The notes beneath the pieces are model-generated. The model made no database searches and was not told where the DNA came from. It saw only the letters and a list, made by a program, of their open reading frames with translations. 33,608 bases of DNA from an uncultured Gammaproteobacteria bacterium (lineage in GTDB: Bacteria > Patescibacteriota > Patescibacteriia > Magasanikbacterales > UBA922). The stretch spans positions 1 to 33,608 of the forward strand of contig CAZCAB010000002.1 of the NCBI GenBank assembly GCA_964496615.1, read 5' to 3'. A program made the translations under genes and the position numbers. Within the stretch, counting starts at the first letter, position 1. Each line of letters starts with the position of its first letter. Positions 13,405 to 31,150 of this stretch are shown piece by piece.

Positions 13405-13405
13405 A

Positions 13406-14518
13406 CTACTTAATATCATCAATTCCGATAGGATCAAATTTCTTTAAATCATGTATCACCTCTCTCCCAATGATACTATCATACTTTTCAGATGGTAGTC
13501 CATCTATATCAGCTTGTGGACGCATTGCATATATCATCTGCGGCTTGATACCTGTTCCTGTTGGTATATCCTGCCCTGCGACAAGCGACTTTCTAAAAAC
13601 TGGACGGAATGCCTGCTCTTCATCTTGTAATAGCTTCTCTTCTTGTGAGAGCGCCTTCTTGGCAAACGCTGATTCGAGCATTCTCTCTTTTTTTAAGGGA
13701 TTAGAAGCGAGTTCATCAAGACTACTTCTCAGTAACTTTAGCTCATTGGGTGTCATCGACACCTTATGGTCTGGCCCCCAGGCATCGCGAGACAATGTGA
13801 AGTGTTTCTCGACAACACTTGCGCCTGCAGCGTAGGCCACTAAAGCTGATTCTATCCCAAGGGAGTGATCAGAAAACCCTATCGGTATGCCTAATCGTTG
13901 TCTCAAAGTCTTAATTGTCCCAAGACGCAGATCCTCAGGTGGACATGGATATTGGGACACACAATGCAGTACCATCACCAGAGCATTTTTTTTCATCACG
14001 AATGATACCGCTTGCTCCACTTCCGCAAAAGTACTCATTCCTGAAGACAGGATGATGGGTTTTCCTGTATTTCGCAAGTAATCTAGAAGAACGAAATCAA
14101 GAATATCCGCTGAGCCAACTTTCCATACCGATATATCCAAGTCCTCAACACGCTGCGCTGCACCCCGACTCATTGGTGTCGTCATGAAGACTATTCCCAA
14201 ATCGTCACAATACGTTTTAAGCGGCCTCCAAAATGTATCCAGCGGTGTTGATATGGTATTACGCCGTACCCATTCGTATCGTTCAAGTCCCTGATAATGG
14301 GGAGAATCTACATCACGACCAAGTTGTTCATCCTCTACGTTGTGCGTTTGCCACTTGATTGCATCAGCTCCACCTGCCACAGCTTCGTCAACAATTTTTT
14401 TTGCAGTATTCAGATACTCCTCCACCGATTTTTGCTCAGCTGATTGAATAAAATTCTTACCTGCCTCTGCGATAAGAAAAGGTCCATCAATCATCTTTTG
14501 CCATACGTCACCTGTCAT
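13406..14518 (-). CDS. divergent NeuB-family (PEP-dependent nonulosonate synthase-like) protein with C-terminal SAF-like domain
   Basis: FLIAEAGKNF...ADAIKWQTH N-terminal region, HCVSQYP and GFSDHS metal-ligand contexts, VEKHFTL, and a C-terminal LVAGQDIPTGTGI SAF-like segment. The track start at 14542 is TTG, so the ATG at 14518 (with upstream GGTGA) is preferred. Confidence 0.68.
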   Translation of the reverse strand: MTGDVWQKMIDGPFLIAEAGKNFIQSAEQKSVEEYLNTAKKIVDEAVAGGADAIKWQTHNVEDEQLGRDVDSPHYQGLERYEWVRRNTISTPLDTFWRPLKTYCDDLGIVFMTTPMSRGAAQRVEDLDISVWKVGSADILDFVLLDYLRNTGKPIILSSGMSTFAEVEQAVSFVMKKNALVMVLHCVSQYPCPPEDLRLGTIKTLRQRLGIPIGFSDHSLGIESALVAYAAGASVVEKHFTLSRDAWGPDHKVSMTPNELKLLRSSLDELASNPLKKERMLESAFAKKALSQEEKLLQDEEQAFRPVFRKSLVAGQDIPTGTGIKPQMIYAMRPQADIDGLPSEKYDSIIGREVIHDLKKFDPIGIDDIK

Positions 14519-14529
14519 ATCAATCACCA

Positions 14530-15834
14530 CTACAAACTCCAATATTCCAGACCCTCTTGCTCCACTTCTTCTCTAGAGAAGATATTCTTTAAATCAGCAC
14601 AGAGCAATTTCCCCTCATTCATTAAACCTTTCAGTTCTTGAGCTGTAATCTTCTTGAACTCATCGTGGGCCACTGCGATGATAAGAACGTCTGCTTTTGG
14701 TAAATCATCTTTGTCAGACAACACTATTCCATACTCACGCTCAACCTCCGCTGGATCAGCAAGTGGGTCATAGACGACAGGCTGGACACCAAAATCAATT
14801 AATTCGTGGTACAACGAAGCCACCTTGGAATTTCGCACATCACGCACATTTTCCTTAAAAGTAACACCATAAATTAAGAATTGGGACGATTTTACATCTT
14901 TGCCCATGCGAACCATGGTCTTAATGATCTGACGAGCAACAAACTTATGCATGGTATTGTTTATTCCTCTGCCAGCTAATATGACCTCTGGTGTGTGTCC
15001 AACAGACTCCGCCTTATACGTCAGATAGTATGGATCAACACCAATGCAATGTCCGCCCACAAGACCAGGAGTAAATTTTAGAAAATTCCACTTAGTTCCC
15101 GCGGCCTCTAGTACGTCGTGCGTATTAATGTCCATTTTGTTAAACAAAATAGCAAGCTCATTCATCAAAGCAATGTTTAAATCACGCTGCGTGTTTTCGA
15201 TGACTTTTGCTGCCTCTGCAACTTTAATAGATGACGCACGAAATACGTTGGTGATTGTCCCGTACACTTGAGCAATTGCATGCGTCGTCTGATCATCCAT
15301 CCCAGCCACCACTTTTGTTACGCGATCAATAGTATGTTCAGCATCACCAGGATTAACCCGCTCAGGAGAATAGCCAACAAAAAAATCTTCGCCTGCAACT
15401 AAGCTGGATTCGCCTTCCAATGCAGGTATGCATTCTTCTTCGGTTGCACCTGGGTACACTGTTGATTCAAATACTACTATGGCACCTTTCGAAAGATGTT
15501 CTCCAACGAGAGCACTTGCGCGTCTGAGAATTGTTAAATCAGGTACATTTTTTTCATCAACGGGAGTTGGAACCGCTACGATGATAAATTTAGAACGAGT
15601 AATCACTGATGGATCGACACTAAAATTAATTCCGGAATTGCAAATCGTTTCAGAATCGAGCTCCCCGGTCCCGTCATGGCCCTGTTTCAACAGGTCGACC
15701 TTCTTCTCATCAATATCAAATCCAAAAACTGAAAAAGTTTTAGAAAGAAGTACTGCTAAAGGTAAACCTACGTAACCGAGACCGACCACACAAACATGCT
15801 CTCTCCTTTGTGTCAAATCCTCAAACAAACTCAT
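14530..15834 (-). CDS. UDP-N-acetyl-hexosamine 6-dehydrogenase (WbpO/TviB/CapL-like nucleotide-sugar dehydrogenase)
   Basis: VVGLGYVGLPLAV Rossmann motif and the GGHCIGVDPYYL catalytic Cys motif typical of this subfamily. The start at 15834 overlaps the ugd stop as ATGA. Confidence 0.8.
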   Translation of the reverse strand: MSLFEDLTQRREHVCVVGLGYVGLPLAVLLSKTFSVFGFDIDEKKVDLLKQGHDGTGELDSETICNSGINFSVDPSVITRSKFIIVAVPTPVDEKNVPDLTILRRASALVGEHLSKGAIVVFESTVYPGATEEECIPALEGESSLVAGEDFFVGYSPERVNPGDAEHTIDRVTKVVAGMDDQTTHAIAQVYGTITNVFRASSIKVAEAAKVIENTQRDLNIALMNELAILFNKMDINTHDVLEAAGTKWNFLKFTPGLVGGHCIGVDPYYLTYKAESVGHTPEVILAGRGINNTMHKFVARQIIKTMVRMGKDVKSSQFLIYGVTFKENVRDVRNSKVASLYHELIDFGVQPVVYDPLADPAEVEREYGIVLSDKDDLPKADVLIIAVAHDEFKKITAQELKGLMNEGKLLCADLKNIFSREEVEQEGLEYWSL

Positions 15835-17216
15835 ATTATTGGCTCGAGATATTGAGATCCAACGGCCACAATCGAACATCCCGCTTTACGCAAATCATCG
15901 TAGCGAGTAGTAAGCATGCGCCTCCCGTCCATAATGAGAGGTTTTGAACCTTGTGAAATCAACATATCACCAAGTGCTTTAAACTGCGGCCAATCCGTGG
16001 AGATGATAACGGCATCAGCGTTTTTTATGCTTGTTGCTTCATCCGTGCAAAATACAACTCTCTCAGAATCGGGCATTTGGCGCTTAAAATGTTCAGAGGC
16101 AGCGGGGTCAAACAAAGAAATACTTTTCACCCCTTTCTTAAGAAGAAATCTCACTATTTCGAAAGCTGGTGAATTACGCACATCATTCGTATTTTGTTTA
16201 AAAGAAAGCCCCAATACTGCAACCGTTTTATCTTCCCACAAAAAATTAGCTTCTGTCTCTGCTCTGCTCAAAAACAACTCGAGCTGCCGTTTATTCGCAA
16301 GATACACCTCGTTAACAAGCACTGCCTCTTTACCTGCCGTTTGAAGCTGATGCGAAAGTGAACGAGCGTCTTTTATAAGACAACTACCCCCCGCATACAA
16401 ACTATTGTAAAATCCCCAATTAGAGATCCTTTTGTCAGTCGTTATGATGCGCCTTAAATTCTCAAATTCTACTTCCGGGAATGTTTCTGAGACTCGCCCA
16501 ATGACATCAAAACATGCTGCTATCTTCATGAACAAATAGTAATTCGCCAAAAGCTTTCCTGCTTCAGCTTCTCTGGGAGTAACTTCAATGTACTGCACGG
16601 TGGATGAATCGTAAAAACGCTGGTAGATACGTCGAACCACTTCGAAATCCGTCTCCGATGTTGCTCCAACAACGACTCGATCTGGACGTACCGAACCTTC
16701 AATTGCTTTGCTCTCAACAAGAAACTCAGGATTGGATACTATGCCAAAATTTTTCGCACCACAATCCTCAAGGAGTTTCTGGACAATATCCACCATATCC
16801 ACTGGGACTGTGCTCTTATTGATGACGACTATGTATTTACTCTGGGAGCCGCCATTTCTCTCTTTCATCGCGTTTCCAAGTTGCTCAGCGGCCTTCCTGT
16901 AATACGATAAATCGGTTTCACCAGTTTCATCCACCTCTGGAGTTGGCACACACATAAAGACCGCATCGCAATTTTCAAGAAAACTCTTTACATCCGATAT
17001 ATCCGTAGTAAATCGAATACGAGAGCCATTGCGAACCAGCATATCACCGAGTCCCTCTTCAAAAATACATTCCTCTATCACATCTCGATTGCCAGATCCA
17101 AGCTTTCTCACCTTTTCTTCATCTATATCAAAAACAAGAGTGTTATGCCCTGAATCAGCTGATACAGCAGCAGAGCACGCACCCACAAATCCTCCTCCTA
17201 TGTATAGAATATTCAT
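15831..17216 (-). CDS. ugd: UDP-glucose 6-dehydrogenase family protein
   Basis: 461 aa with IGGGFVGACSAAV Rossmann motif, GGSCLIKD catalytic Cys motif and a C-terminal UDP-binding domain. Confidence 0.8.
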   Translation of the reverse strand: MNILYIGGGFVGACSAAVSADSGHNTLVFDIDEEKVRKLGSGNRDVIEECIFEEGLGDMLVRNGSRIRFTTDISDVKSFLENCDAVFMCVPTPEVDETGETDLSYYRKAAEQLGNAMKERNGGSQSKYIVVINKSTVPVDMVDIVQKLLEDCGAKNFGIVSNPEFLVESKAIEGSVRPDRVVVGATSETDFEVVRRIYQRFYDSSTVQYIEVTPREAEAGKLLANYYLFMKIAACFDVIGRVSETFPEVEFENLRRIITTDKRISNWGFYNSLYAGGSCLIKDARSLSHQLQTAGKEAVLVNEVYLANKRQLELFLSRAETEANFLWEDKTVAVLGLSFKQNTNDVRNSPAFEIVRFLLKKGVKSISLFDPAASEHFKRQMPDSERVVFCTDEATSIKNADAVIISTDWPQFKALGDMLISQGSKPLIMDGRRMLTTRYDDLRKAGCSIVAVGSQYLEPII

Positions 17217-17293
17217 AGAAATATGTGCTACATACTCTATATGAAATAAGGCAATAAATCAAGCCATCACTGTGAGTAATTCTGCAGAAAAAC

Positions 17294-17322
17294 TTGACAA
17301 CAAAGGAAAAAAATGCAATCAT
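17294..17322 (+). promoter_or_regulatory. candidate promoter of the GC-rich gene
   Basis: TTGACA (17294-17299), 17-nt spacer ending in TGC (extended -10 like), AATCAT (17317-17322). A GGAGGA Shine-Dalgarno at 17350-17355 precedes the ATG at 17360. Confidence 0.35.
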
Positions 17323-17359
17323 GTTCTTGTATCGATCCACACCTATCTTGGAGGAAGCC

Positions 17360-18697
17360 ATGCGTCGAGTCATGACGATCACCTTTTTTGTTGTCTCGAT
17401 GCCTGGATGCGTCGAGAAATTCGAGCCTGCTGGCCAGTCCCTTGATGAGAACTCGGGTGACGAAGGCGGGCAGGAAGGCGACGAGGGAAACGCAGAACCC
17501 GATCCTGACGAAGGCGGGCAGGAAGGCGACGAGGGAAACGCAGAACCCGATCCTGACCCCGATCCTGACGAAGGCGGGCAGGAAGGCGACGAGGGAGAAG
17601 GTGAAGGGGAGGGCGAGGATGACCGCGTGATCAACTGCGGTGACGACAGTCACTGTGTCGACATCACGAACATCTGTTCGTGCGATGACGACAACAGCAT
17701 CTATTGCGAGCGTAAGACCGGCACGTGCACCGCAGGTCGCTGCGACCTTGAGCCGGTGCTCGTCAGTGCTTGCCCGTTTGGTTGCGATCACGAGCTCAAT
17801 CAATGCCGCCCCGCACCGTGTCCCGAAGGTGACACTTGCTGCGAAGGTGATGAGGAAGAGCCCCCATGTAACGGATGTCCCGAAGGGACAATCGTGCCCG
17901 AAGGCACGGTCTGCGTACCAGGAGGTGAATTCCGAATGGGTAGCCCAGAGGACGAAAATGGTCGGGACGGTGCGAACGAACGCCAGATCGCAGTCGCCCT
18001 CACCAACGCCTTACTGGTCGCGCGTACAGAAATCACGCAGTTCGAGTGGGAGCTCGTGATGGACCATCGCCCATCGTCACGGGAAGACTGTGACAACTGC
18101 CCGGTCGAGCAAATCGCCTGGGCTGACGTGGTCGCCTACGCCAATAGCCTCTCGACTCAGGATGAGCTGAATCCCTGCTATCTGAACGAAGATGGTGAGG
18201 TCTACGGCTCGCAAGACGCCGAGAATCGTCGAGCAGTGGTGTGGCAAAATGGGTATGATTGCGAAGGGTGGAGGCTCCCAACGGAAGCTGAGTGGGAGTA
18301 TGCCACACGGGCAGGAACAACCACACCCTGGTGGTGCGGTGAGGATCCTGAATGCCTCGAGCAAACCGAATGGTACCTGCGAAATGCCCAGAACGGATCT
18401 CATGAAGTCTGCCTCAAAGAGGAAAACGCATGGGGCCTGTGCGACACCGTCGGCAACGTCATCGAGTGGGTCTGGAACTGGTATGGACCTCATCCGGACT
18501 TGGAGGAGACACTCATCAATCCGCGAGGACCAGAAGGTGACGGGAACAACCCGAAGGTGTTTAAGGGGTGCGGTTACGTACTCCCGGCGGAATCATGTCG
18601 TAGCGCGAGTCGCCTGTCAGGTCGACCGTTCGAGGAGATCGCCCCCCACGTCGGCGCACGTCTCGTGAGGAAGGCATCGCAGATCGGCAATCTGTAG
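17360..18697 (+). CDS. putative lipoprotein with acidic repeat linker, Cys-rich region and FGE/SUMF1 (formylglycine-generating enzyme family) domain
   Basis: Signal plus lipobox-like MRRVMTITFFVVSMPGC. A DEGGQEGDEGNAEPDP repeat linker and many Cys residues follow. FGE-sulfatase signatures GGEFRMGS, WRLPTEAEWEYATRAGTTTPW and GNVIEWVWNWY are present. G+C is far above the flanks. A strong SD supports the ATG at 17360. Confidence 0.85.
   Translation: MRRVMTITFFVVSMPGCVEKFEPAGQSLDENSGDEGGQEGDEGNAEPDPDEGGQEGDEGNAEPDPDPDPDEGGQEGDEGEGEGEGEDDRVINCGDDSHCVDITNICSCDDDNSIYCERKTGTCTAGRCDLEPVLVSACPFGCDHELNQCRPAPCPEGDTCCEGDEEEPPCNGCPEGTIVPEGTVCVPGGEFRMGSPEDENGRDGANERQIAVALTNALLVARTEITQFEWELVMDHRPSSREDCDNCPVEQIAWADVVAYANSLSTQDELNPCYLNEDGEVYGSQDAENRRAVVWQNGYDCEGWRLPTEAEWEYATRAGTTTPWWCGEDPECLEQTEWYLRNAQNGSHEVCLKEENAWGLCDTVGNVIEWVWNWYGPHPDLEETLINPRGPEGDGNNPKVFKGCGYVLPAESCRSASRLSGRPFEEIAPHVGARLVRKASQIGNL
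17459..17596 (+). repeat. in-frame 48-bp tandem repeat: two perfect copies, a 12-bp spacer, then a 30-bp partial third copy
   Basis: 17459-17506 and 17507-17554 are identical (gacgaaggcgggcaggaaggcgacgagggaaacgcagaacccgatcct). 17555-17566 is gaccccgatcct. 17567-17596 repeats the first 30 nt. Confidence 0.92.
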
Positions 18698-18797
18698 GGT
18701 GCCTCTCCAAAAAAGCTCCACAAACCAACGAGGGTCAGGAGCGCCCTCATTCACCTGCGATATTGATATATAATAAATCGATGGTGCAGGAGAATAT

Positions 18798-18821
18798 AAA
18801 AAATCTCTGTTGAGATTTTTT
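18798..18821. terminator. bidirectional hairpin terminator between convergent genes
   Basis: AAAAAATCTC-TGTT-GAGATTTTTT lies between the FGE-like gene (+) and the end of the long minus-strand operon, overlapping the HAD stop codon by 2 nt. Confidence 0.5.
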
Positions 18822-19488
18822 ATATTTGTCTAATATTACTTGAAACTTTCAAAAATAGGTCAGAAAGCGAATCGACTATTACTTCTCTTTCTGAAATGAC
18901 TCCAGGTTGCCATTTGTTAAACTGATTCGCAAGACCAAAAAAAGGAATATTGCAAGATTGCGCTGCAAGCATATCACTCTCACCATCACCGACCATGCAC
19001 GCCCGTTCCCTGTCATATCCGTTCTCTAAAAGAATCAGGTTAATGACGTCAGTTTTTTTTCTCGGACTCCCATAGCATCCCTTAAAGAAATTTCGTATCT
19101 CAAGTCCATCAATAGTTTCCTGCACTTGCTCTTCAGGCGTGCCCGTGATTATGTACAAATCAGCATCATGTGAAATTTCCTTGAGGAGCTCTTGGACGCC
19201 CGGGTTGAGACCCCTGCTAAGTATCTGCCGCTGAATACAATCGTTGTATGCTTTCGCATAGTGTTCAACCGTACGATCAATATCGTCTTTACCTACACCG
19301 CAAGCAGTAAATGTTCGCTCCAATATCTCATAGCGAGATTTTTCTCTATGAGTAAAGAGTACATCGTCCATTGCACGATGTAACCTCTCATCATCTGCAG
19401 GGAGAATGTCAAAAAATGCATCAAATTTGAGTTGATTAGAATCAACTATAATACCATCAAAGTCGAAGAAGACAGACCGAGAAGGCAT
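18820..19488 (-). CDS. HAD-superfamily phosphatase (subfamily IA-like)
   Basis: Motif I FFDFDGIIVDS, motif II IITGT, motif IV MVGDGESD. It is the last gene of the operon, 6 nt after the NeuB-cupin gene. Confidence 0.8.
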   Translation of the reverse strand: MPSRSVFFDFDGIIVDSNQLKFDAFFDILPADDERLHRAMDDVLFTHREKSRYEILERTFTACGVGKDDIDRTVEHYAKAYNDCIQRQILSRGLNPGVQELLKEISHDADLYIITGTPEEQVQETIDGLEIRNFFKGCYGSPRKKTDVINLILLENGYDRERACMVGDGESDMLAAQSCNIPFFGLANQFNKWQPGVISEREVIVDSLSDLFLKVSSNIRQI

Positions 19489-19494
19489 ACTGGA

Positions 19495-21030
19495 CTACTC
19501 AAATTGATACCTACCCCAGTTGACCAGCTTTGTCTTTCTATCCTCCCGTTTCATGTTATTAATTGAATGATCCTCATATATTGAATCATTATTGTAGTGA
19601 GTTGTTGACACCTCCTCAAAAACAACACCCGTCTCTGTTGAGAATCCATGACGAACACCTCTTTGAACAAGTAAAGTATCCCCTGGATACAAACGGCGGA
19701 CACGACCTTCAATGTCAACATCAAGCTCTCCCCACAAAATTTGAAATGACTCTTCTTTCTTCTTGTGGTGGTGAGATGGATTCCGTTGTCCAGCCATTTG
19801 AACAAGTATTTTCTTACAATACTCACGATTGATACACGTAATGATCGCAACACCAGCTTCGTGAAAATTCTCAAGTCCATAATGATGCGATAGCTCGAGA
19901 TCAAAATCATACCCTACATGAATTTTTGCGATGTTAAGCATTCCTCGAATCTCGTGAATAGAATGATAGATAATTTCTGCATTCGTCTTCTTAAGACCTT
20001 TGAGTGCATCACTACTCACAGGATCATTCTTCTTGTATGATCTATCAGCTATATGTCCTGTGCTCCACTCCCCACTCGTCAGTTGACCCTCCTGAAGTGG
20101 AATTGAAAAGAAAACATCTTCATCTTGAATGACTTCTCCTGCTTGGATATCCTTTTTTACATAAACACCACGAAGTAATGTCTTAAGAGATGCCATCTCG
20201 CTCTCTGCGGCCGCAGGCCTTATATCACTCCCACAGGATTCTTTCGCTTCTTTATACGCTCGTATCCACTGCTCGAGTTGTTGTGGTGTTGAAGAATATG
20301 CATTTAGATTGATCTCACTTGTCGCTACGCCAACATGTCTTTCAAAAAGCTTTGCACCCTTTGCACACGCTATCTGAACTGCTGACATGTTATCCGGATG
20401 TTCATGAGTTGAAAATCCGATCGGCACATGATGATACCGTGCACGCAAATTATCTATCTGATTGAGCTGAAGCTGATCATGAGGTGTCGGATATATAGCA
20501 ATGCAGTGCATGAGTGCAAACTGCACATCCTTATGATCTAAAAAGCTTACCAACTTATCAATATCCTTGATCGACAGACCTCCAGTTGAGACAATCATCG
20601 GCTTACCTGTGGCTGCCGCCTTTTCTAAAAGGGGCCAATCGCGAGCAGAACAACTCCCAATCTTCAATATTTCAACACCGAGTTTCACAAGTGTATCAAC
20701 TGAATCCTCATCAAATGGTGTACTCATGGTAACTAATCCACGCGCGCGCGTATGCTCGACCAAGGCCTTAAATTCATCTTCGCTTAGGCGAGTCGAAAGA
20801 AAACGTTGTACATGCTTGACATCGTCCCTTTCTCTAAAATCAGGATGGATAAATGTATCCAAATTTCGAAATTGCAACTTAACAGCAGCCTGAACCCCCA
20901 TGTTCTTTGTTACTCCTCCGTGCTCATCAATTATCCTCTTACCATGCTCAACACTACCCTGATGGTTGTTAGCCATCTCGAGTATAAACAGGTCAGAGAA
21001 AATTGAATTGTCCTTGTTCTGAATCGCCAT
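19495..21030 (-). CDS. NeuB-family synthase fused to SAF and C-terminal cupin domains (511 aa)
   Basis: N-terminal ILEMANNHQGS...VKLQFR, then CIAIYP, GFSTHE and FERHVG NeuB motifs. A SAF-like VYVKKDIQAGEVI segment follows. The C-terminal cupin motif 1 fits G-x5-HxH-x4-E-x6-G (GQRNPSHHHKKKEESFQILWG, G codon at 19789-19791), and motif 2 is approximated by PGDTLLVQRGVRH. Confidence 0.8.
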   Translation of the reverse strand: MAIQNKDNSIFSDLFILEMANNHQGSVEHGKRIIDEHGGVTKNMGVQAAVKLQFRNLDTFIHPDFRERDDVKHVQRFLSTRLSEDEFKALVEHTRARGLVTMSTPFDEDSVDTLVKLGVEILKIGSCSARDWPLLEKAAATGKPMIVSTGGLSIKDIDKLVSFLDHKDVQFALMHCIAIYPTPHDQLQLNQIDNLRARYHHVPIGFSTHEHPDNMSAVQIACAKGAKLFERHVGVATSEINLNAYSSTPQQLEQWIRAYKEAKESCGSDIRPAAAESEMASLKTLLRGVYVKKDIQAGEVIQDEDVFFSIPLQEGQLTSGEWSTGHIADRSYKKNDPVSSDALKGLKKTNAEIIYHSIHEIRGMLNIAKIHVGYDFDLELSHHYGLENFHEAGVAIITCINREYCKKILVQMAGQRNPSHHHKKKEESFQILWGELDVDIEGRVRRLYPGDTLLVQRGVRHGFSTETGVVFEEVSTTHYNNDSIYEDHSINNMKREDRKTKLVNWGRYQFE

Positions 21031-21077
21031 AATTAAAGGGTGTGAATCAATGTGAGTAAAGAGTTAATACATCCTCC

Positions 21078-21815
21078 TCATTTAATCTTATGTTTCGTTA
21101 GGTATAGTTCGACAAGGTCAAAATCTATTGGCGTATCTATGTCGATACAATTTTCGCTCGGCATCTCAAAATATCCTATATCTTTACCAACCACCGTGTC
21201 AAATTGATCTATCGTCTTGGTGTATATCACATCAACAGCGCCATGCACATATGCTTTAGGCAATACTTGTCTTGGCATATCATACGGATGCTCAAAACCC
21301 GTAAATGATGGCGGAACTAATGATTCGATCCTTCCATCTTTTTCACTTTTTTTCCATGCTTTATACGGATGACTCGGGGCAGATGAAATAGATCTAACAC
21401 AATCGAGAATTGGGTCAGCAAGGAGTGTACAAATACCCTGATCAATATGTTCTGAAGTCCTCAACGGGAATGTGGGAGCCAATCGCAACACGACGTCGGG
21501 ATGATATTGCTGATTCTGATCAAGCCACGTGAGCGCGTGCTTTATGAACTCAATATCAGTTGAATCGTCCTGTGCTAGTTCTGCAGGCCGCAAGAAAGGT
21601 ACATCAGCGCCATGTTGCCTGGCTACATCCGCTATCTCTTCATCATCTGTCGTCACAATAATGCGATCGATATGCTCAGATTTTTTTGCTGCATCGATAG
21701 TCCATGCAATAAGTGGTTTTCCTGCTATTGGCAATATGTTTTTTCTAGGAACGCCTTTAGAGCCACCGCGTGCTGGTATAATCGCCAGCACTTCGACATT
21801 GCTTTGAACAACCAT
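21078..21815 (-). CDS. acylneuraminate (nonulosonate) cytidylyltransferase, NeuA-like paralog 1
   Basis: CTP_transf_3 signature IIPARGGSKGVPRKNI...GKPLIAWTI. The track start at 21824 is TTG, so the ATG at 21815 is preferred. Confidence 0.87.
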   Translation of the reverse strand: MVVQSNVEVLAIIPARGGSKGVPRKNILPIAGKPLIAWTIDAAKKSEHIDRIIVTTDDEEIADVARQHGADVPFLRPAELAQDDSTDIEFIKHALTWLDQNQQYHPDVVLRLAPTFPLRTSEHIDQGICTLLADPILDCVRSISSAPSHPYKAWKKSEKDGRIESLVPPSFTGFEHPYDMPRQVLPKAYVHGAVDVIYTKTIDQFDTVVGKDIGYFEMPSENCIDIDTPIDFDLVELYLTKHKIK

Positions 21816-21825
21816 ATACAACAAA

Positions 21826-23328: not shown

Positions 23329-23333
23329 ACCAT

Positions 23334-24392: not shown

Positions 24393-24393
24393 A

Positions 24394-25113
24394 TTATTTT
24401 TTCTGAATGATTTCCTTCATTATAAGCTCTGCATAATCAAAATCTCTTTGCGTATCGATATCAAGGGCATACACACTATCCATCTCGTATCCATAGGTAT
24501 TCTCACCCCAGAGCGTCTTAGTACTATACATGCTACTAACTTTAAATGCATAAATTGCTGAATTGATATAGTATGATTCAGACACATCTTGATTTCTGTG
24601 TTTCATATCCTTCACCTGAGCCCCATCAATGACTCTCGTGAGCATATGCGATGTATCAATTTTCAACTGCTTGTATACACTGTATTTTGGATCAACAAGC
24701 GAGACACCAACAACAGAATCAATACCATCATGGTTTTGTATGATTTGTGCGACATCCTGAATGTGATTCACTTGTCTACCTGGGCATGAAGGCTCCAGAA
24801 GGACAACCCAATCAGGGTCATAATTATCATGCTCTTTAAGCCAAGTAACTGCGTGAAATATGGGATCAAAAGAAGATGATGTATCAGTCGCATATTCAGG
24901 TGGGCGCATGAACGGAACTTCGAGACCACAATCTAGACCAACTTGAGCAATCTGCTCATCGTCTGTTGAAAGTATGAATCGATCCAGCACGTTACTTTCT
25001 AGACCAACAGATGCTGTCCAAGCAAGAAGTGGTTTACCCAAAAACGACCTGATATTCTTTCCCGGCAGTCTTTTTGACCCTCCTCGTGCTGTTACGATTC
25101 CTAGGATATTCAT
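24394..25113 (-). CDS. neuA: acylneuraminate cytidylyltransferase, NeuA-like paralog 2
   Basis: IVTARGGSKRLPGKNI...GKPLLAWT. The track start at 25119 is TTG, so the ATG at 25113 (MNILGIV) is preferred. Confidence 0.85.
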   Translation of the reverse strand: MNILGIVTARGGSKRLPGKNIRSFLGKPLLAWTASVGLESNVLDRFILSTDDEQIAQVGLDCGLEVPFMRPPEYATDTSSSFDPIFHAVTWLKEHDNYDPDWVVLLEPSCPGRQVNHIQDVAQIIQNHDGIDSVVGVSLVDPKYSVYKQLKIDTSHMLTRVIDGAQVKDMKHRNQDVSESYYINSAIYAFKVSSMYSTKTLWGENTYGYEMDSVYALDIDTQRDFDYAELIMKEIIQKK

Positions 25114-25156
25114 GAACAATATGTCGATATATAATACAATAAAGTATCAAGAAGTG

Positions 25157-25309
25157 TCAACTAGTGCCATTTCTCTGATTTGCCTTATTGTAAACTATGT
25201 CAAACATTCGTTTTCCTGACTGCCCATCAATCATATAACAAAACTGTTCAATGAGTTTTTGTCTGTTCGCCTTGTCGACATTTGGATTATAAATATATGT
25301 ATCAATCGC
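25157..25309 (-). other. out-of-frame C-terminal continuation (50 codons plus stop) of the upstream GT-B-like gene
   Basis: Hand translation of the -1 frame gives AIDTYIYNPNVDKANRQKLIEQFCYMIDGQSGKRMFDIVYNKANQRNGTS*, a typical glycosyltransferase C-terminal helix region with no start codon of its own. It joins the 25302..26552 frame if the A8 tract loses one A. Confidence 0.6.
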
Positions 25310-26552
25310 TTTTTTTTAGCTGTTCTTCACTTTCAACAACCTGTGCAGCCTTCACAGAAAGAATCTCCGTGAAATAATCAGTCAAATACCACCGCTTAAC
25401 ACTTCTATGAAAAGGTTTTGGAGTGGGTCCATCAAAGTTAATTAAAATCACAGGCTTACCCATAGCAGCACCATCTAATGTTAAAGTTGAACACGTATTG
25501 ATAACAACATCTGAGTGATACAGAGAATTCAAAAAATGATTCATTTGCTTATCTGAGTAATCCCATCTGTCTCTAAAATTGCTTGACGGATTATTTTGTC
25601 GATCAACAACGACATTTGGTCGATCGAAATAGTCCTTGAACTTAAGGTGATCATCCTTGTGTGCAAAGTGCGGTCTAATGAGGAGTTGCGCAGGTTGTTT
25701 GAATGCATCCTGGTCAATGAGATCTGCAATGACACCAGCCACATCTGGATCAGTAGGAACGTACTTACCTTCAGACCCAAAGAAGATAATTTTTTTATTT
25801 GGATCAAGACCAAGCGAGGCACAAAAATCTTCTCGAGATTCGATCAGGGCGTTATCGCTGTAATAATCAAACTGTGGAACACCGGTAATAGCTATCTGTG
25901 ACGGATGGTAATCCTGCAATGTCTGCATCTGCTTTTTCATGAAGTGACTCCACACGACTACCGTGTCAGCCTTCGCCCTAAAGTAGAGCTTTGAAGGATT
26001 ATCCCATGACTTCGGCATAGCTACGGATGGCACCTTGAGCCTGCGTGCTGCCTTAAGTAGCGCGGATTCGCTATCCTCACCCATGCTCGTTGAAAAAATC
26101 ACAGATGGCTCATGAGCTAGTATCATTGACGTGTATTGACGCACCATGTCCTTTTGCAATAAAAGGTAATCAAGCCATCGCAAGAACTTTCTCACAAATT
26201 GCACTTTTGAAAGTGGATAAAAAAGTGATTTTATGACAACATATTTTACTTTCGAAGGAGGCTCCAAAGAATCCCCGACCGTATCATACCGGATCAACTT
26301 TTCCGTTGTTTTATTGTAGATAATATATTTGTTCACCTTATGAATGAGCAGACGTAGCAGTGTGTTTTCTGATGGTAACATTGGAAGAAAAGTCACATTC
26401 TCCGCTCCAAATTCAGAGATGAATCTTTCATCATTATTTGCGGGGGTAACGATGAAAACCTGGTCAAAGTTCTTCTTCAATTCTTTAAAAAAAGTATTCT
26501 TGAGAAGATTTCTGGCAGTACCGCCGCGAGATATGGTGATCATTACATTCAT
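25302..26552 (-). CDS. unassigned GT-B-like / capsule-type transferase candidate (416 aa as called, probably C-terminally truncated by frameshift)
   Basis: Two Rossmann-like halves (MNVMITISRGGTARNLL... and DVVINTCSTLTLDGAAMGKPVILINF) resemble TagF/capsule-synthesis-type GT-B proteins. No specific CAZy-family motif recognised. The start overlaps the upstream stop as ATGA (26549-26552). Confidence 0.5.
   Translation of the reverse strand: MNVMITISRGGTARNLLKNTFFKELKKNFDQVFIVTPANNDERFISEFGAENVTFLPMLPSENTLLRLLIHKVNKYIIYNKTTEKLIRYDTVGDSLEPPSKVKYVVIKSLFYPLSKVQFVRKFLRWLDYLLLQKDMVRQYTSMILAHEPSVIFSTSMGEDSESALLKAARRLKVPSVAMPKSWDNPSKLYFRAKADTVVVWSHFMKKQMQTLQDYHPSQIAITGVPQFDYYSDNALIESREDFCASLGLDPNKKIIFFGSEGKYVPTDPDVAGVIADLIDQDAFKQPAQLLIRPHFAHKDDHLKFKDYFDRPNVVVDRQNNPSSNFRDRWDYSDKQMNHFLNSLYHSDVVINTCSTLTLDGAAMGKPVILINFDGPTPKPFHRSVKRWYLTDYFTEILSVKAAQVVESEEQLKKSD
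25310..25317 (-). repeat. A8 (T8 on plus strand) homopolymer at the frameshift point
   Basis: Counted directly: ...cgc tttttttt agc... The current frame reads CTA AAA AAA AGC GAT TGA. Confidence 0.9.
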
Positions 26553-27511
26553 ATACTCTGACTAGTTTTATAAAAGCTCTCGATCTTCTGCGCAATAAAC
26601 ATATCTGTCTTCTCTCGAGATTCATGGGTCACCCCACCAATATGAGGAACGATAATACAGTTGTCGCTTTTTTGCGCGTATGCAATAAGCGGGTGAGAGA
26701 CATTCTCCGTATCAAACGATAGTTCTCCTGACAGAACATCAGCCGCATAGCCAGCGATTAATCCTTCTTCTAGAGCATTGAGCAGATCTTTTTCATTTAC
26801 GATTTCGCCGCGAGATGTGTTGATAAGATAGGCGCTCTTCTTCATGCGACCAAACGAGTCAGCATTAATCATTGCGCGCGTCTCATCATTTAGATGGACA
26901 TGTATCGATATGATATCACTGTTTTTAAGCAGGTCCCGAAAATCTGACCGCATCTCACCATGTTGAGGTGCATTCTCTACATATGGATCATATACTATTA
27001 CTTTCATGTCAAAGGCTCGAGCATATCTTGCCATCATTTTCCCCAACCGACCATGTCCGATAAGACCTAACGTTTTACCCTGTAATGTGTGCCCTCTAAA
27101 ATTCTCACGCTTCCAGTTTTCTTTCTTTACTGAAAAAAAGCTGTGACTCATCTTTCTCATGATATCGATCATGAGGCCCCATGCAAGTTCGGCAGTGCCA
27201 GTTATAGTATCCAAAAATTCAGTCTCGCCTCGCAGACTCAAAATGGCAACCCCCTTATCTTGTGCAGCATCCATGTCTATATGATCGAGTCCTGTCGTTG
27301 GCGTCGCAAGCACCTGTAGCTGACTCGCGCTATCAAAAACGTCTTTATCAAAAGTTACACCAAGAGATGTGATGATAGCATGATAATGCGCGACTTGCTG
27401 CTTCAACTGCTCCTGAGTCATATCCGCATAATCAACAGATCCAATTTTATCAAGTATCTTCTTGGCAGAATCTGTAAAGTTGGGGACCAAATTGAGGATG
27501 CGAATAGACAT
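26549..27511 (-). CDS. D-isomer-specific 2-hydroxyacid dehydrogenase (SerA/glycerate dehydrogenase-like)
   Basis: GKTLGLIGHGRLGKMMA NAD-binding motif, NTSRG, and the catalytic PHIGGVTHES context. Confidence 0.85.
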   Translation of the reverse strand: MSIRILNLVPNFTDSAKKILDKIGSVDYADMTQEQLKQQVAHYHAIITSLGVTFDKDVFDSASQLQVLATPTTGLDHIDMDAAQDKGVAILSLRGETEFLDTITGTAELAWGLMIDIMRKMSHSFFSVKKENWKRENFRGHTLQGKTLGLIGHGRLGKMMARYARAFDMKVIVYDPYVENAPQHGEMRSDFRDLLKNSDIISIHVHLNDETRAMINADSFGRMKKSAYLINTSRGEIVNEKDLLNALEEGLIAGYAADVLSGELSFDTENVSHPLIAYAQKSDNCIIVPHIGGVTHESREKTDMFIAQKIESFYKTSQSI

Positions 27512-27514
27512 ACT

Positions 27515-28237
27515 CTAATTATTTTCATTACGCTTCAACAAAAAAGAAGCAAACTCAAAATCGATCGGCTCGTTTATATCCACTGATCGATCCTCTGGCA
27601 TAACATACGCACGAGAATCCGCCCCAAAAATATCACCTTCCATAACCAGATCAGTGCGAGTCAGATATATAGCACAGTTTCTTTTATATATAGGCTCTGC
27701 ATCCTGCCTCCGAGCTGATGCGGTACCTTCATTACTCACAGCAGATGTAATAACGCCATTTTCAATATATTTAAGTTTGGCCAGTGACATGTCAGTCAAC
27801 TCATACATACTCATCACCGAATCTGCGCCCGAATCCACAATCATTTCTATGCAAGCATCAATATCTTCACTTGTTCTCAATGGCGAAGTGGGCTGCAGAA
27901 CCATGACATAATCATATGAGATATCATCTAAATCAGCGAGTGATGTTACTGCATGCTGCATAAACTCTATTGCTGTGCTCCTATCCTGCGAAATTTCATC
28001 TGGCCTCATAAACGGAACTTCAGCTCCAGCCGCTCGCGATAATTCGGCTATTTGCACATCATCCGTGGAAACTATGCATCTGGTTAAGAAAGCGCTTTTT
28101 TGAGCGGCCTCTATCGTCCAATATATGAGAGGTTTACCAAGAAGCGGCCTAATATTTTTTTGGGCAATACCTTTAGAACCACCGCGAGCCGGGATGATAC
28201 CAAGGACCTTTTTGTTTTTGTACATTCCAGAATTCAT
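27515..28237 (-). CDS. acylneuraminate cytidylyltransferase, NeuA-like paralog 3
   Basis: IIPARGGSKGIAQKNI...GKPLIYWTI. The track ORF extends into the upstream gene, so the first ATG after that gene's stop (28237) is used. 28225 is an alternative. Confidence 0.85.
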   Translation of the reverse strand: MNSGMYKNKKVLGIIPARGGSKGIAQKNIRPLLGKPLIYWTIEAAQKSAFLTRCIVSTDDVQIAELSRAAGAEVPFMRPDEISQDRSTAIEFMQHAVTSLADLDDISYDYVMVLQPTSPLRTSEDIDACIEMIVDSGADSVMSMYELTDMSLAKLKYIENGVITSAVSNEGTASARRQDAEPIYKRNCAIYLTRTDLVMEGDIFGADSRAYVMPEDRSVDINEPIDFEFASFLLKRNENN

Positions 28238-28244
28238 ACTGCGA

Positions 28245-29978
28245 TTACAACTGGTATTTTGCTCCAATACCCAAGCCATCATAGTGAACATGGTCGATTG
28301 ATTGAAAATCAAAATCCACGAAAATAGCCCATCCATCAAATAGCAAGCTCGGTCGCGCAAGTGTCTTCACTAATGAATAAATTCCTAGATCATAAAAAGA
28401 ATGATGGTTATTAAGAACCACAACACAGTCTGCATTCATGAATCCATTTTCAACCGATGTTGGGGTCACATCAAGTGTCTGTAACTCTTCATCAGCGACA
28501 ACAGGATCATGGACATATATGTTCTTATATTCTTTTTGTATCTCCTGCATGATTTCAACTCCAGTGGACGATCGCAAATCAGAAGTTTCAGGTTGTCCCT
28601 TAAAGGCAAGTCCCATTATGAAGATTTTAGGGTCTGTCACACCTCGTTTATGAGTACGCAGAAAAGTAATTACTTTTTGGGCAACAAATGAAATCATGCT
28701 CTCATTTATATCACGACCAACGATCGGTAGCTTAGGTGTGTACGATATAGACTCGGATGATTTCATAAAGATGAAGGGATCCTTAGTAAGACATGCCCCG
28801 CCCACACCCGGGCTTGGTACTGGAATATTGTTTCGGGGATACCCCAAATTTGCGGCCTCAATAACCTCATACGTATTGAGTGAAAAGCCATCCATAACTT
28901 GTGATAATTCGTTGGAATATGCGAATGTTAAATCCCTGTACGTGTTATTCACGAGCTTTACAGCTTCTGCAGCCTCCAGCGTACTTACCATGCGGATCGA
29001 TCTCACAAATTCTTTAAAGAGATTAGCAGCTAAGTCTGAACTTGCTTTGTCATATCCACCAATTACTTGAGGAATGCTACGTATCTCTTGAAGCGCCACC
29101 CCTTCGGCTGTACGCTCCGGCGCAAATGCAACAAAGAAATCTCTGCCCGCTTTGTAATCGGTTTCTCTCTCAAGAATCGGAATAACAAAGTTTCGACATG
29201 TACCAATTGGTACTGTCGAACGCAAGACAATCAGATCATTTGGTTTGAGTATCTTTGAGATAACCTTTAGCGAGCTTTCCAAATATTGCATTTGGACTGT
29301 ATTTGTATCATCGACAGGAGTTCCAACACATATGATGTAAACATCACTTACACCCTCTTGAAATTCACTCGTAACAATAAATCTGTTATCAATATGGCGT
29401 TGCAGTAATTCATCAAGACCCTTTTCAAAAAAATGTGATTTTCCGGTGCGCAGCTGCGCAACCACGGACTCCTTAATATCAACGCCAATAACCTCAAAAC
29501 CGACTTCCGCCAAGGTGAGTGCAAGCGTGAGACCCACGTAACCTAATCCGATGACTCCAACACGGCGAGTTTTAACCTCACTCATCTTCCATAGCTCAAA
29601 AAAAGAGTACACATCAGTTGGTCTTCTTTGATCATCCACCAAGATCACTTTATCAATTGCATTGTATGGAATATTTCGTGCACGTATCTGTTCAAATACA
29701 CGTGGTAGCATGTTATGGACAGGCACATCGGATTCGATCGTGATTGGATCTGTTGTCATTATCTCGCCCACAGAAACATCGAGGTTAAATCCACTTAATA
29801 GTGCTCGACGAATATCGCCATCAGTAACAACACCTTCAAGTATGCTATTGCTATCAACAACAAGTACTATTCCGTGCAGCACCTCTGAATCACCGCCCAC
29901 ACCATGAGTTATCATACTCATGACTTCCTTTATTGTGGCATGTCGATTTGTTTGTAGATGATTGTTTCTGATCTTCAT
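28245..29978 (-). CDS. CBS-pair fused to a UDP-sugar 6-dehydrogenase (WecC/UDP-ManNAc dehydrogenase-like)
   Basis: N-terminal approx 130 aa carry CBS motifs (ATIKEVMSM...GIVLVVD...LEGVVTDGDIRRALL). These are followed by VGVIGLGYVGLTLALTLAE Rossmann and GVGGACLTKDP catalytic Cys motifs. Confidence 0.8.
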   Translation of the reverse strand: MKIRNNHLQTNRHATIKEVMSMITHGVGGDSEVLHGIVLVVDSNSILEGVVTDGDIRRALLSGFNLDVSVGEIMTTDPITIESDVPVHNMLPRVFEQIRARNIPYNAIDKVILVDDQRRPTDVYSFFELWKMSEVKTRRVGVIGLGYVGLTLALTLAEVGFEVIGVDIKESVVAQLRTGKSHFFEKGLDELLQRHIDNRFIVTSEFQEGVSDVYIICVGTPVDDTNTVQMQYLESSLKVISKILKPNDLIVLRSTVPIGTCRNFVIPILERETDYKAGRDFFVAFAPERTAEGVALQEIRSIPQVIGGYDKASSDLAANLFKEFVRSIRMVSTLEAAEAVKLVNNTYRDLTFAYSNELSQVMDGFSLNTYEVIEAANLGYPRNNIPVPSPGVGGACLTKDPFIFMKSSESISYTPKLPIVGRDINESMISFVAQKVITFLRTHKRGVTDPKIFIMGLAFKGQPETSDLRSSTGVEIMQEIQKEYKNIYVHDPVVADEELQTLDVTPTSVENGFMNADCVVVLNNHHSFYDLGIYSLVKTLARPSLLFDGWAIFVDFDFQSIDHVHYDGLGIGAKYQL

Positions 29979-29998
29979 ATAAGTGGCTTCTTCAAGAT

Positions 29999-31150
29999 TT
30001 AATCACAAAATCTCTTTTGTGTGTAAAGAGGGAGAGTTGCTAATAGATGTGCAATCTGGCTACTCGTACCGGGCTTATAGTACATATCACTCTGAGCATA
30101 GCATCCACGGCGAAGTTGAGTTTCAATTGCATCTTGTATCCGTGTTGCATCATATTCAGCATCAATAATGTGCTCTCCTCGCATGCGACCTGACTGTCTG
30201 GTACCAATATTTACAACTGGTGTACCAAAATATGAAGCTTCCTTTATCCCTGCAGATGAATTACCGACAAGACAAGCTGCGTTCTTAAGCAAGTACGCAA
30301 AATGCCCTGGCTCAATATGCTTGATAAAACGTATTTGATGAGTATCCTGCTCCTCTCTGAAGACACGCAACGCTTTACTCACCTCGTCAGTCCCCGCATC
30401 CACATTTGGCCAAAACCAAATTGCTGGTGTATTACTTTTGCTAACAGCGTCCAATGTTTGTTCAGTGTTAAACCTGTTATCACCTATCTCACTCGTAACA
30501 GGATGTTGCACAACCATGAGATACGGCTGGGTAAGATCAATCTCGCTACCAACCCCAGTCGTATTAATTAATTCTCGTGAGACGTCCTTAGTCTCTTTTG
30601 CAATAAATTCAATCCCAGGACAACCAACATTAAAGACATACTCAGGCTGTTCCCCCATACGGATCAAACGGTCCTTAGATACATTATTGGTTGGGAAATG
30701 AATATGCGCTAACTTAGAAATCGCATGACGAACACTCTCGTCAATCGTGCCGGTCACATCTCCCCCTTCAATATGTGCTACCGGAATATTAAGGTATGCA
30801 GCAGACACGGCCGCAGACAAAACTTCATACCTATCCCCTCTCACGACGACAACATCTGGCTTAATATTGTCAAAAGCAGTTGCAAATTCGGCTATTCCAA
30901 TACCTGTAGTTTTAGCCATTGCCACAGCAGAACCACCTTCAAGTGTCATGGTAATCTTTGCACTACAGGTAAAGCCATCCTTCTCAATGAGCGTTAATAC
31001 ATCCCCATAATTAGGTAAGATAGCAGAGGCTCCAACGATAATACTCAGATCTAGAGCATCATTTTTCTTTATTTCGTCTAAAATAAGTTTGCTCCGAGCA
31101 TAATGAATTTTGGAGGTGATGATAAACGCAATTTTTCTTTTCTTTGACAT
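29999..31150 (-). CDS. UDP-N-acetylglucosamine 2-epimerase, hydrolysing type (NeuC-like) paralog 2
   Basis: HIEGGDVTGTIDESVRHAISKLAHIHF. 383 aa and strongly diverged from paralog 1. Confidence 0.8.
   Translation of the reverse strand: MSKKRKIAFIITSKIHYARSKLILDEIKKNDALDLSIIVGASAILPNYGDVLTLIEKDGFTCSAKITMTLEGGSAVAMAKTTGIGIAEFATAFDNIKPDVVVVRGDRYEVLSAAVSAAYLNIPVAHIEGGDVTGTIDESVRHAISKLAHIHFPTNNVSKDRLIRMGEQPEYVFNVGCPGIEFIAKETKDVSRELINTTGVGSEIDLTQPYLMVVQHPVTSEIGDNRFNTEQTLDAVSKSNTPAIWFWPNVDAGTDEVSKALRVFREEQDTHQIRFIKHIEPGHFAYLLKNAACLVGNSSAGIKEASYFGTPVVNIGTRQSGRMRGEHIIDAEYDATRIQDAIETQLRRGCYAQSDMYYKPGTSSQIAHLLATLPLYTQKRFCD

Follow-up and report, generated by a model that had tools for sequence, protein, structure and literature searches.

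How many different sialic-acid-like sugars can be made from a single bacterial surface-glycan locus? The question is raised by the metagenomic contig CAZCAB010000002.1, which we analysed over its entire length of 33,608 bp (the window) and for which an initial annotation had proposed three NeuB-family synthases, three NeuA-type cytidylyltransferases (CTs) and two NeuC-type epimerases. Our analysis suggests that one minus-strand gene array, extending from position 33608 to 18820, together with an outlying synthase gene (NeuB1), carries the information for three routes leading to sialic-acid-like (2-keto-3-deoxy) sugars in CMP-activated form. We hold it to be fairly probable that these routes correspond to three modules combined in the surface-glycan locus of one bacterium of the candidate phyla radiation (CPR). 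Module A would make CMP-N-acetylneuraminic acid (CMP-Neu5Ac), module C most likely CMP-2-keto-3-deoxynononic acid (CMP-KDN), and module B a nonulosonate built by the epimerase NeuC2 and the synthase NeuB1 and subsequently tailored.

The 30 substantial open reading frames (ORFs) of the window, the majority of which lie on the minus strand, were assigned to families using Pfam (PF03102 cut-off, 22.1 bits) and the curated cut-offs of NCBIfam/TIGRFAM: 235.9 bits for the hydrolysing epimerase model TIGR03568, 210 for wecB, 399.65 for the NeuB equivalog TIGR03569, 206 for PseF, 340 for PseI (TIGR03586), 408 for PseB and 475 for LegB (TIGR04180). The Pfam and TIGR03568 searches confirmed the proposed gene count. 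PF03102 matched three ORFs (13406-14542, 7.6e-67, 225.7 bits; 19495-21030, 1.3e-47, 162.7 bits; 23334-24392, 1.1e-68, 231.7 bits), CTP_transf_3 (PF02348) matched three (21078-21824, 24394-25119 and 27515-28360) and Epimerase_2 (PF02350) two (22177-23328 and 29999-31150). Both epimerases proved to be of the NeuC type, scoring 390 and 379.5 bits on TIGR03568 against just 115 and 65.7 bits on wecB, and are thus predicted to be hydrolysing NeuC/LegG-type enzymes (NeuC1 and NeuC2, respectively).

Amino-acid identity between the paralogs is 26-32% for the NeuBs, 34-41% for the CTs and 34% for the NeuCs. Because these identities reach only 26-41%, the copies appear to be old, and recent duplication or an assembly artefact, already discounted by the initial annotation, can be ruled out. 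We aligned the three NeuBs with Neisseria meningitidis NeuB (NmNeuB), Bacillus subtilis SpsE and the Protein Data Bank (PDB) entry 3g8r, using sequences taken from PDB alignments and the residue roles (NmNeuB numbering) listed in PMC8208679. All three keep the metal ligands His215/His236 as well as E25, E234, K53, Q55, K129 and S132, so that no paralog has lost its catalytic residues. The CTs are similarly intact, with the ARGGSK..KN and DID..DF motifs present in all three. A KdsB-type (CMP-Kdo) identity of the CTs was rejected, since their PseF scores (139-152 bits) largely exceed those on KdsB (46-58 bits), and CT1 matches CMP-Neu5Ac synthetases at 1e-34 versus 1e-9 for KdsB.

All the genes of the three modules are on the minus strand. 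Module A (25119-22177) corresponds to the canonical neuC-neuB-neuA triad that had been recognised at the outset, and it is borne out by the family searches. It comprises the neuA-like CT2 (24394-25119; PF02348 1.5e-20; PseF 145 bits versus KdsB 47), NeuB3 (23334-24392), a canonical synthase with NeuB and SAF domains matching NmNeuB (1xuu) at 9e-55, and NeuC1 (22177-23328). NeuB3 conserves all the ManNAc-binding and catalytic residues of NmNeuB (E25, K53, Q55, K129, E134, H215, E234, H236, D247 and R314). The most economical reading is that module A makes CMP-Neu5Ac by the standard bacterial route, in which NeuC1 would hydrolyse and epimerise UDP-GlcNAc to N-acetylmannosamine (ManNAc), NeuB3 would condense ManNAc with phosphoenolpyruvate (PEP) to yield Neu5Ac, and CT2 would activate the latter with CTP. 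The same three enzyme families are found in the neuA-neuB-neuC genes of N. meningitidis and Escherichia coli K1. Module A differs from these in the scores of NeuB3 and CT2, which are below the equivalog cut-offs, in its CPR host and in the insertion of the triad within an operon containing two other ulosonic-acid modules. A promoter-like site (25131-25160, minus strand; TTGACA-18-TATTAT, 11/12 positions, a strong sigma-70-like match), identified by consensus match only, occupies the 183-bp gap preceding the module.

Module C (21824-18820) contains a more unusual synthase. Its first gene encodes CT1 (21078-21824; PF02348 4.8e-26), whose PDB matches are CMP-Neu5Ac synthetases (6ifd, 1e-34; 1eyr, 2e-23). 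It is followed by a NeuB-family synthase (19495-21030) in which the NeuB part (amino acids 1-~345) is fused to a cupin resembling D-lyxose/D-mannose isomerases (amino acids ~345-511; nucleotides 19495-20013), and by a HAD-IA phosphatase (18820-19488; HAD_2 9.7e-18) with intact DFDG and GDGESD motifs. The initial annotation had described a pair made of a NeuA-like protein and a NeuB-SAF-cupin protein. The cupin fusion stands, the SAF domain received no Pfam call (this part of the protein shows homology to the SAF region of 3g8r and NmNeuB and lacks Arg314), and the phosphatase had not been listed as the third member. Residues 10-342 of NeuB-cupin match 3g8r at 1e-92, and the alignment reveals changes in the sugar pocket (E134S, D247N and R314I) together with conservation of the metal and PEP ligands. 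The nearest solved relative, 3g8r, is a structural-genomics entry named 'probable spore coat polysaccharide biosynthesis protein E' that shows the same E134S and D247N changes and the same loss of Arg314. With 350 amino acids and no cupin, it differs from the fusion found in the window.

An AF2 model of the cupin domain (C-terminal 170 residues) had a pLDDT of 90, and the top 10 Foldseek matches to it were all D-lyxose isomerases (TM 0.65-0.71; best 2y0o, TM 0.71, rmsd 1.8), some of which had been crystallised in the presence of fructose or mannose. The profile of the domain retrieved 2y0o (1e-12) and 7nzo (4e-9) from the PDB, and Pfam Lyx_isomer (PF07385) gave 28.2 bits versus a cut-off of 20.8, although no single stretch passes alone. 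A His-His-Glu-His metal motif is invariant, and the Lys preceding the Glu is conserved. Thus, the model points to a fold and metal site of the D-lyxose/D-mannose isomerase type, from which isomerase activity is predicted. The match covers the full length of the fold of characterised isomerases (B. subtilis YdaE 2y0o, E. coli Z5688 3kmh/3mpb and Thermofilum 7nzo-q), whereas identity to them is just 18-23% and the cupin studied here is nearly always a C-terminal fusion to NeuB. Indeed, when the cupin profile was searched against 1.84 billion representative sequences, we found 214 representative clusters at E<=1e-30, nearly all with the domain at ~345-510 of proteins of ~510 amino acids, which indicates a subfamily essentially restricted to NeuB fusions.

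The fusion occurs, according to a genome scan, in at least 566 species from many phyla, including Nitrospira, Verrucomicrobia and CPR bacteria. Within 3 kb of NeuB-cupin, 68 of the best 80 loci have a CT and 54 a homolog of the window-type HAD phosphatase, whereas a NeuC was counted in just 3. The gene order in CPR bacteria (CT, NeuB-cupin, HAD) is the same as in the window, CT1 shares 51-56% identity with the CTs encoded ahead of NeuB-cupin in CPR loci, and triple NeuB-cupin-CT fusions are known (P0072 and P0096). The closest relative (L081) has a His_Phos_1 phosphatase instead of the HAD one and an additional APH-type kinase; this non-orthologous replacement suggests that the phosphatase step is integral to the cassette. 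A stand-alone CBS-pair protein of the window (21826-22173, minus strand; CBS 4.5e-11), matching the CBS region of KpsF/GutQ, adjoins the cassette in just 1 of the 80 loci.

Module C therefore looks like a self-contained and NeuC-independent unit. The cupin domain would convert a ketose or ketose phosphate, most simply fructose-6-P or fructose, to a manno-aldose, which the NeuB domain, devoid of the acetamido-binding Arg314, would condense with PEP. The HAD phosphatase would remove the phosphate before or after condensation and CT1 would carry out the activation with CTP, most likely to CMP-KDN or to a closely related deaminated compound. We propose KDN because the gene logic matches that of two described cases. 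The Kdn-9-P phosphatase of Bacteroides thetaiotaomicron is a capless YrbI-like HAD enzyme, whereas that of module C is of the HAD_2/IA type. In B. thetaiotaomicron, KDN derives from mannose-6-P and PEP through a NeuB-family Kdn-9-P synthase (BT1714), a phosphatase and a CMP-Kdn synthetase (PMC6200933). By gene content, this route resembles module C in having a NeuB-family synthase, a HAD-superfamily phosphatase and a CTP_transf_3 enzyme, and no NeuC; the fusion of the synthase to a lyxose/mannose-isomerase-like cupin is specific to the latter. The Serratia marcescens KL1/KL2 capsule loci produce KDN from neuA and neuB alone, the neuB product having an additional sugar-phosphate-isomerase domain (PMC9000132). 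They share with module C a synthase fused to an isomerase-type domain, a CT and the lack of neuC, but that 747-amino-acid protein has, in place of the cupin, a TIM-barrel isomerase/epimerase of COG1082, and the paper mentions no phosphatase (PMC9000132). We found nothing in the literature on a combination of NeuB and cupin.

Module B brings together genes located at 31150-26549 and the distant NeuB1. It had been described as a synthase-less module made of a NeuC-like protein, a CBS-dehydrogenase and a NeuA-like protein. The fusion of a CBS pair to an NDP-sugar dehydrogenase and the family of the NeuA-like protein stand; the start of the latter is probably at 28237 rather than 28360, and a D-isomer-specific 2-hydroxyacid dehydrogenase (2HADH), not listed before, also belongs to the module. 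The genes encode NeuC2 (29999-31150), the CBS-pair/NDP-sugar 6-dehydrogenase fusion (CBS-DH; 28245-29978), the putative CMP-ulosonic-acid cytidylyltransferase CT3 (27515-28237, starting at Met42 of the long ORF; PF02348 6.7e-27; PseF 152 bits versus KdsB 54) and 2HADH (26549-27511; 2-Hacid_dh_C 1.8e-52). CBS-DH contains the N-terminal, central and C-terminal UDPG_MGDP_dh domains in addition to CBS (TIGR03026, 362 bits), and its catalytic Cys396 is invariant in the alignment of homologs. NeuB1 (13406-14518), 12 kb off the operon, has NeuB and SAF domains; it shows E134D, retains R314 and has an insert after the E25 motif.

We scanned metagenomes with a CBS-DH profile and inspected a 4-kb radius around the gene in 83 loci. 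A CT was present in 54 of them, a NeuB-family gene in 50, 2HADH in 25 and NeuC in only 3. The order CBS-DH, CT, 2HADH, NeuB is recurrent (e.g., L103, L112-114, L122, L125 and L127, L147), and the NeuB that goes with it belongs to a separate, short type (~316-322 amino acids) with E134D and without Arg314. In the window, CBS-DH, CT3 and 2HADH keep the conserved order, and a glycosyltransferase gene comes next instead of the short NeuB. On the other hand, genes similar to NeuB1 (46-51% identity) are immediate neighbours of NeuC2-like genes and a CT in three other loci (L019, L072 and L105). Since the window cassette is devoid of the short NeuB and the NeuB1-like, NeuC2-like and CT genes adjoin in relatives, module B looks as if a NeuB/NeuC/CT triad and the dehydrogenase cassette had been merged, with one CT common to both. 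We propose NeuB1 as the synthase partner of NeuC2. The possibility that NeuB1 was recently displaced was rejected, its position being kept in a related contig (L166; 75% nucleotide identity, syntenic over window positions 3515-14234), where a 67% identical ortholog also lies beside a TviC-like epimerase gene.

In the proposed pathway, NeuC2 and NeuB1 would make a Neu- or Leg-type nonulosonate, CT3 would activate it, and the NAD-dependent CBS-DH and 2HADH, which flank CT3, would tailor the sugar by oxidation, as ElaA and ElaC do with CMP-legionaminic acid. In Acinetobacter baumannii KL49 and Vibrio vulnificus, the ElaABC system consists of a CT and two oxidoreductases and epimerises CMP-legionaminic acid at C8 (PMC13656337). 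There as in module B, two NAD(P)-dependent oxidoreductases flank a CTP_transf_3 enzyme, but the analogy does not go beyond this logic: ElaA belongs to the Gfo/Idh/MocA family and ElaC to the short-chain dehydrogenases/reductases (SDRs), whereas the pair in the window consists of a UDPG_MGDP_dh-family protein with CBS and a 2-Hacid_dh protein, and different chemistry is likely. Module B cannot be assigned to the ElaABC type, as CT3 is not flanked by a Gfo/Idh/MocA oxidase and an SDR reductase. This analogy suggests tailoring of the CMP-activated sugar by CBS-DH and 2HADH, which is the weakest part of the model. In several relatives, unannotated proteins of 378-386 amino acids are encoded downstream of CBS-DH, directly after it in L083 (9741-10877) and also in L084 (10474-11634) and L085 (12667-13803). 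The L084 protein shows a weak Glyco_tran_28_C (PseG-like) match, while those of L083 and L085 have no Pfam match; they may be nucleotide-sugar hydrolases substituting for NeuC.

Between modules A and B, GTq (25302-26552, minus strand; 416 amino acids) is a putative CMP-ulosonic-acid glycosyltransferase. It has a weak match (50.9 bits) to the BFO_1060 family, which comprises Pse/Leg transferases of Tannerella forsythia, and a weak TagF-like Glyphos_transf match; no relative by sequence was found in the PDB. GTq homologs occur within 3 kb of NeuB-cupin in 22/80 loci, and beside both cassettes in many loci, and GTq is likely the transferase for at least one CMP-ulosonate.

Could the additional branches simply be pathways for pseudaminic (Pse) or legionaminic (Leg) acid? 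The initial annotation had noted the absence of PseB/LegB-type dehydratases and DegT aminotransferases, and our searches agree: no member of the DegT, LegB or PseB families was detected among the 30 main ORFs, and the two SDRs reached 154 and 68 bits versus 475 for LegB. Likewise, the window does not encode a recognisable pseudaminic pathway (PseI, 149-243 bits versus 340; PseB, 44 versus 408; no DegT or Glyco_tran_28). The legionaminic pathway also fails in the window, on the basis of the same LegB scores and the lack of DegT, with an operon that continues past the contig end. The extra branches are recurrent units rather than gene debris: both correspond to conserved non-textbook cassettes present in hundreds of other genomes.

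Several observations weigh against the three-route reading, and we examine them with the alternatives on which they bear. All three NeuBs and all three CTs fall under the equivalog cut-offs (NeuB3 287, NeuB1 252 and NeuB-cupin 164 bits versus ~400 for NeuB_NnaB, TIGR03569; PseF 139-152 versus 206), and the nearest characterised enzymes are only ~30-40% identical, the products of all modules being predicted ones. Concerning module C, D-lyxose isomerases use unphosphorylated sugars and some strongly favour lyxose, so an eight-carbon product or another order of steps is possible. In addition, a Gfo/Idh/MocA oxidoreductase gene adjoins the cupin cassette in many relatives, where plain KDN may not be the product. 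The NeuB-cupin cassette might then make 3-deoxy-octulosonate (C8) from xylulose-5-P or lyxose, or a further oxidised or epimerised ulosonic acid, which would also be in line with the altered sugar pocket of its NeuB domain (E134S, D247N and no R314). We see this as possible though rather doubtful: CT1 resembles CMP-sialate synthetases and not KdsB, the two KDN precedents share the gene logic of the cassette and, to our knowledge, all characterised NeuB-family enzymes yield nine-carbon acids. The Gfo/Idh/MocA genes of the relatives are located at 11550-15125 in L081 (which also has the APH-type kinase), 11639-12715 in L082, 12275-13408 in L019, 11572-12654 in L072 and 12283-13335 in L003, and no such gene exists in the window. 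They belong to the same family as ElaA, the CMP-legionaminic-acid oxidiser, which hints that the cassette product is tailored in those genomes.

Other objections concern module B. A neighbour-joining tree of CTs places CT3 cleanly with neither the cassette type nor the triad type; the dehydrogenase cassette of the window lacks its usual short NeuB; NeuB1 is 12 kb distant amid uronic-acid genes, in the same place as in the related species L166; NeuC2 is about equally near to the A. baumannii hydrolysing diacetylbacillosamine (diNAcBac) 2-epimerase of the legionaminic pathway (5xvs; 4e-63, 217 bits) and to human GNE (3e-66, 227 bits); and an acyl-carrier-protein module and the contig end lie immediately upstream of NeuC2. 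This module comprises four minus-strand genes, encoding a 5'-truncated acyl carrier protein (ACP) that runs off the contig end (33398-33608; motif WDSFNGLILVTELEKNF; Pfam PP-binding 23.4 bits versus 20.8), a MaoC-type (R)-hydratase/dehydratase (32957-33394; PF01575 1.2e-18) for which an exact-match look-up retrieved no second record, a FabG-like SDR (32256-32960; adh_short_C2 2.5e-44, with FabG models as best matches) and a putative acyltransferase of 363 amino acids with two GNAT-like regions (31159-32250; weak matches to Acetyltransf_7, Acetyltransf_1 and Acetyltransf_17, and no NCBIfam match). The last is not the same as the 378-386-amino-acid proteins that follow CBS-DH in relatives. Together, the four genes look like an acyl-transfer module.

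This acyl module and the truncated ACP at the contig end leave room for a legionaminic-type branch with its early genes off the contig. Branch B would in that case produce a legionaminic-type sugar with an unusual N-acyl group, with the 4,6-dehydratase and the aminotransferase encoded past the contig end, NeuC2 acting as LegG, NeuB1 as LegI and CT3 as LegF; the ACP, MaoC, FabG-like and GNAT-like proteins would provide this group as a 3-hydroxyacyl or enoyl unit and attach it. The position of those genes directly upstream of NeuC2 and the score of NeuC2 on 5xvs are compatible with this scheme, and TIGR03568 spans NeuC and LegG alike. Against it, no LegB, LegC, LegH or DegT member is present within the window, no dehydratase or aminotransferase was seen in the scanned subset of flanking genes of the triad relatives (L019, L072 and L003), and CBS-DH and 2HADH are left unexplained. 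We regard a legionaminic-type branch as unlikely, while keeping it in mind. In our reading, each of the three modules would yield a nine-carbon product, these products would differ from one another and the one of branch B would not be of the legionaminic type.

A more speculative proposal, to which we give little credence, is that the CBS-DH/CT/2HADH(/short NeuB) cassette makes an undescribed CMP-ulosonic acid with a second carboxylate, formed by oxidation of the terminal CH2OH (a 'nonulosaric' acid), the cassette being fed in the window by NeuC2 and NeuB1. The dehydrogenase might act on the CMP-sugar itself or, alternatively, a free hexuronic acid might be condensed with PEP; by either route 2HADH would work on the new alpha-hydroxy-acid end.

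Instead of belonging to a third ulosonic branch, NeuC2 and CBS-DH might form a WecB/WecC-like pair making UDP-ManNAcA for the glycan backbone, with CT3 as a spare NeuA and only two ulosonic branches in the locus. An epimerase gene beside a gene similar to UDP-ManNAc dehydrogenases is the classic wecB-wecC layout, the best specific models for CBS-DH are UDP-ManNAc dehydrogenases, and the locus has further uronic-acid genes. Nevertheless, the 379 bits of NeuC2 on the hydrolysing model contrast with 66 on wecB (cut-off 210), as does its PDB match to GNE with those to WecB-type entries (8e-11 at best), and the CBS-DH homologs that adjoin NeuC are very few compared with those close to a CT or a NeuB gene. 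CBS-DH fails both UDP-ManNAc dehydrogenase equivalogs (270 versus 750 and 230 versus 459 bits), so that the pair cannot be classified as WecB/WecC, an interpretation that we find very improbable. Finally, the idea that the paralogs are redundant or partly decayed copies all making Neu5Ac, which could draw on the same three families being involved throughout and none reaching its equivalog cut-off, is hardly tenable given their low identity, their different sugar-pocket residues, the inclusion of each extra copy in its own cassette conserved across phyla, the integrity of every ORF and motif, and the small, streamlined genomes attributed to CPR bacteria, in which such redundancy would be unexpected.

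The rest of its gene content marks the window as a locus for a lipid-linked acidic surface glycan: the initiating polyprenyl-phosphate glycosylphosphotransferase (11047-12489, plus strand) passes its cut-off (TIGR03025, 350 bits versus 295.6) and glycosyltransferases and three NDP-sugar dehydrogenases are also encoded. Family scans identified a TviC-like 4-epimerase (12496-13437), a TviB-like UDP-GlcNAc 6-dehydrogenase (14530-15879) and a UGDH-like dehydrogenase (15831-17216), all on the minus strand; the locus thus contains three nucleotide-sugar 6-dehydrogenases (TviB-like, UGDH-like and CBS-fused) and a 4-epimerase, and the glycan is probably very acidic even discounting the ulosonic acids. 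The host appears to be a Magasanikbacteria-like CPR bacterium: the penicillin-binding protein (3646-5415) shares 57-62% identity with proteins from Candidatus Magasanikbacteria and further Patescibacteria, and 87% with that of the related contig L166, and the best matches of NeuB-cupin and CBS-DH are also from CPR bacteria.

The glycan locus is interrupted by an FGE-sulfatase-domain gene on the opposite strand (17294-18697, plus strand), which has a GC content of 52.6%, compared with ~42% elsewhere, and 48-nt tandem repeats (17458-17613) coding for an acidic linker. This gene may have been inserted here after horizontal acquisition. The FGE and HAD genes converge on a perfect inverted repeat (18793-18826; 15 nt, with a loop of 4 nt), which is likely a bidirectional terminator closing the nonulosonate operon. 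Sulfotransferase genes are present in the glycan loci of the related CPR genomes L081 and L083, and an ATP-sulfurylase/APS-kinase gene in that of L081 (spans 1123-1971 and 18799-20445 in L081, 1-261 in L083), which suggests that the surface glycans of these bacteria are sulfated as well as sialylated. At the other end of the window, genes for tRNA-Glu(CTC) (2249-2321) and tRNA-Met(CAT) (3545-3619) delimit an interval with an ORF of 377 amino acids (2263-3396) that begins within tRNA-Glu and has no family match. This interval seems to be a variable spot, because in L166 it contains a PemK toxin gene and synteny ends between the two tRNAs.

Multi-branch loci with the same composition recur in other CPR genomes (L003, L019, L035, L100, L102 and L105), which indicates that the arrangement is a real biological pattern and not a one-off. 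Several nonulosonic acid pathways per genome are known in Campylobacter jejuni, which has Neu5Ac, legionaminic and pseudaminic synthases, and in Leptospira. There, the additional branches follow the textbook Leg and Pse schemes and include genes for a dehydratase and an aminotransferase, which those of the window lack. What differs here is that, judging from sequence comparisons, the extra branches are two broadly distributed cassettes that are neither Leg nor Pse. Our literature searches retrieved no experimental characterisation of the NeuB-cupin/phosphatase/CT cassette or of the CBS-DH/CT/2HADH/short-NeuB cassette, and, among the results listed, nothing relevant on nonulosonic or sialic acid biosynthesis in CPR bacteria/Patescibacteria.

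Sialic-acid-like sugars govern the recognition of cell surfaces, and their biosynthesis is held to be well mapped as Neu, Leg, Pse and Bacteroides-type KDN routes. If the NeuB-cupin cassette does make KDN, it would serve as a genetic marker for environmental bacteria with deaminated sialic acid; if the CBS-DH cassette oxidises a CMP-nonulosonate, it would reveal a new class of sugars; and, should the 'nonulosaric' proposal hold, the surface of a single CPR bacterium would bear Neu5Ac and KDN together with a dicarboxylic analogue of sialic acid. CPR bacteria are described as having small, streamlined genomes and, for many of them, as seemingly living attached to host cells. That ~15 kb of such a small genome should be spent on three activated acidic sugars suggests that these glycans matter for the host-attached lifestyle of CPR bacteria.

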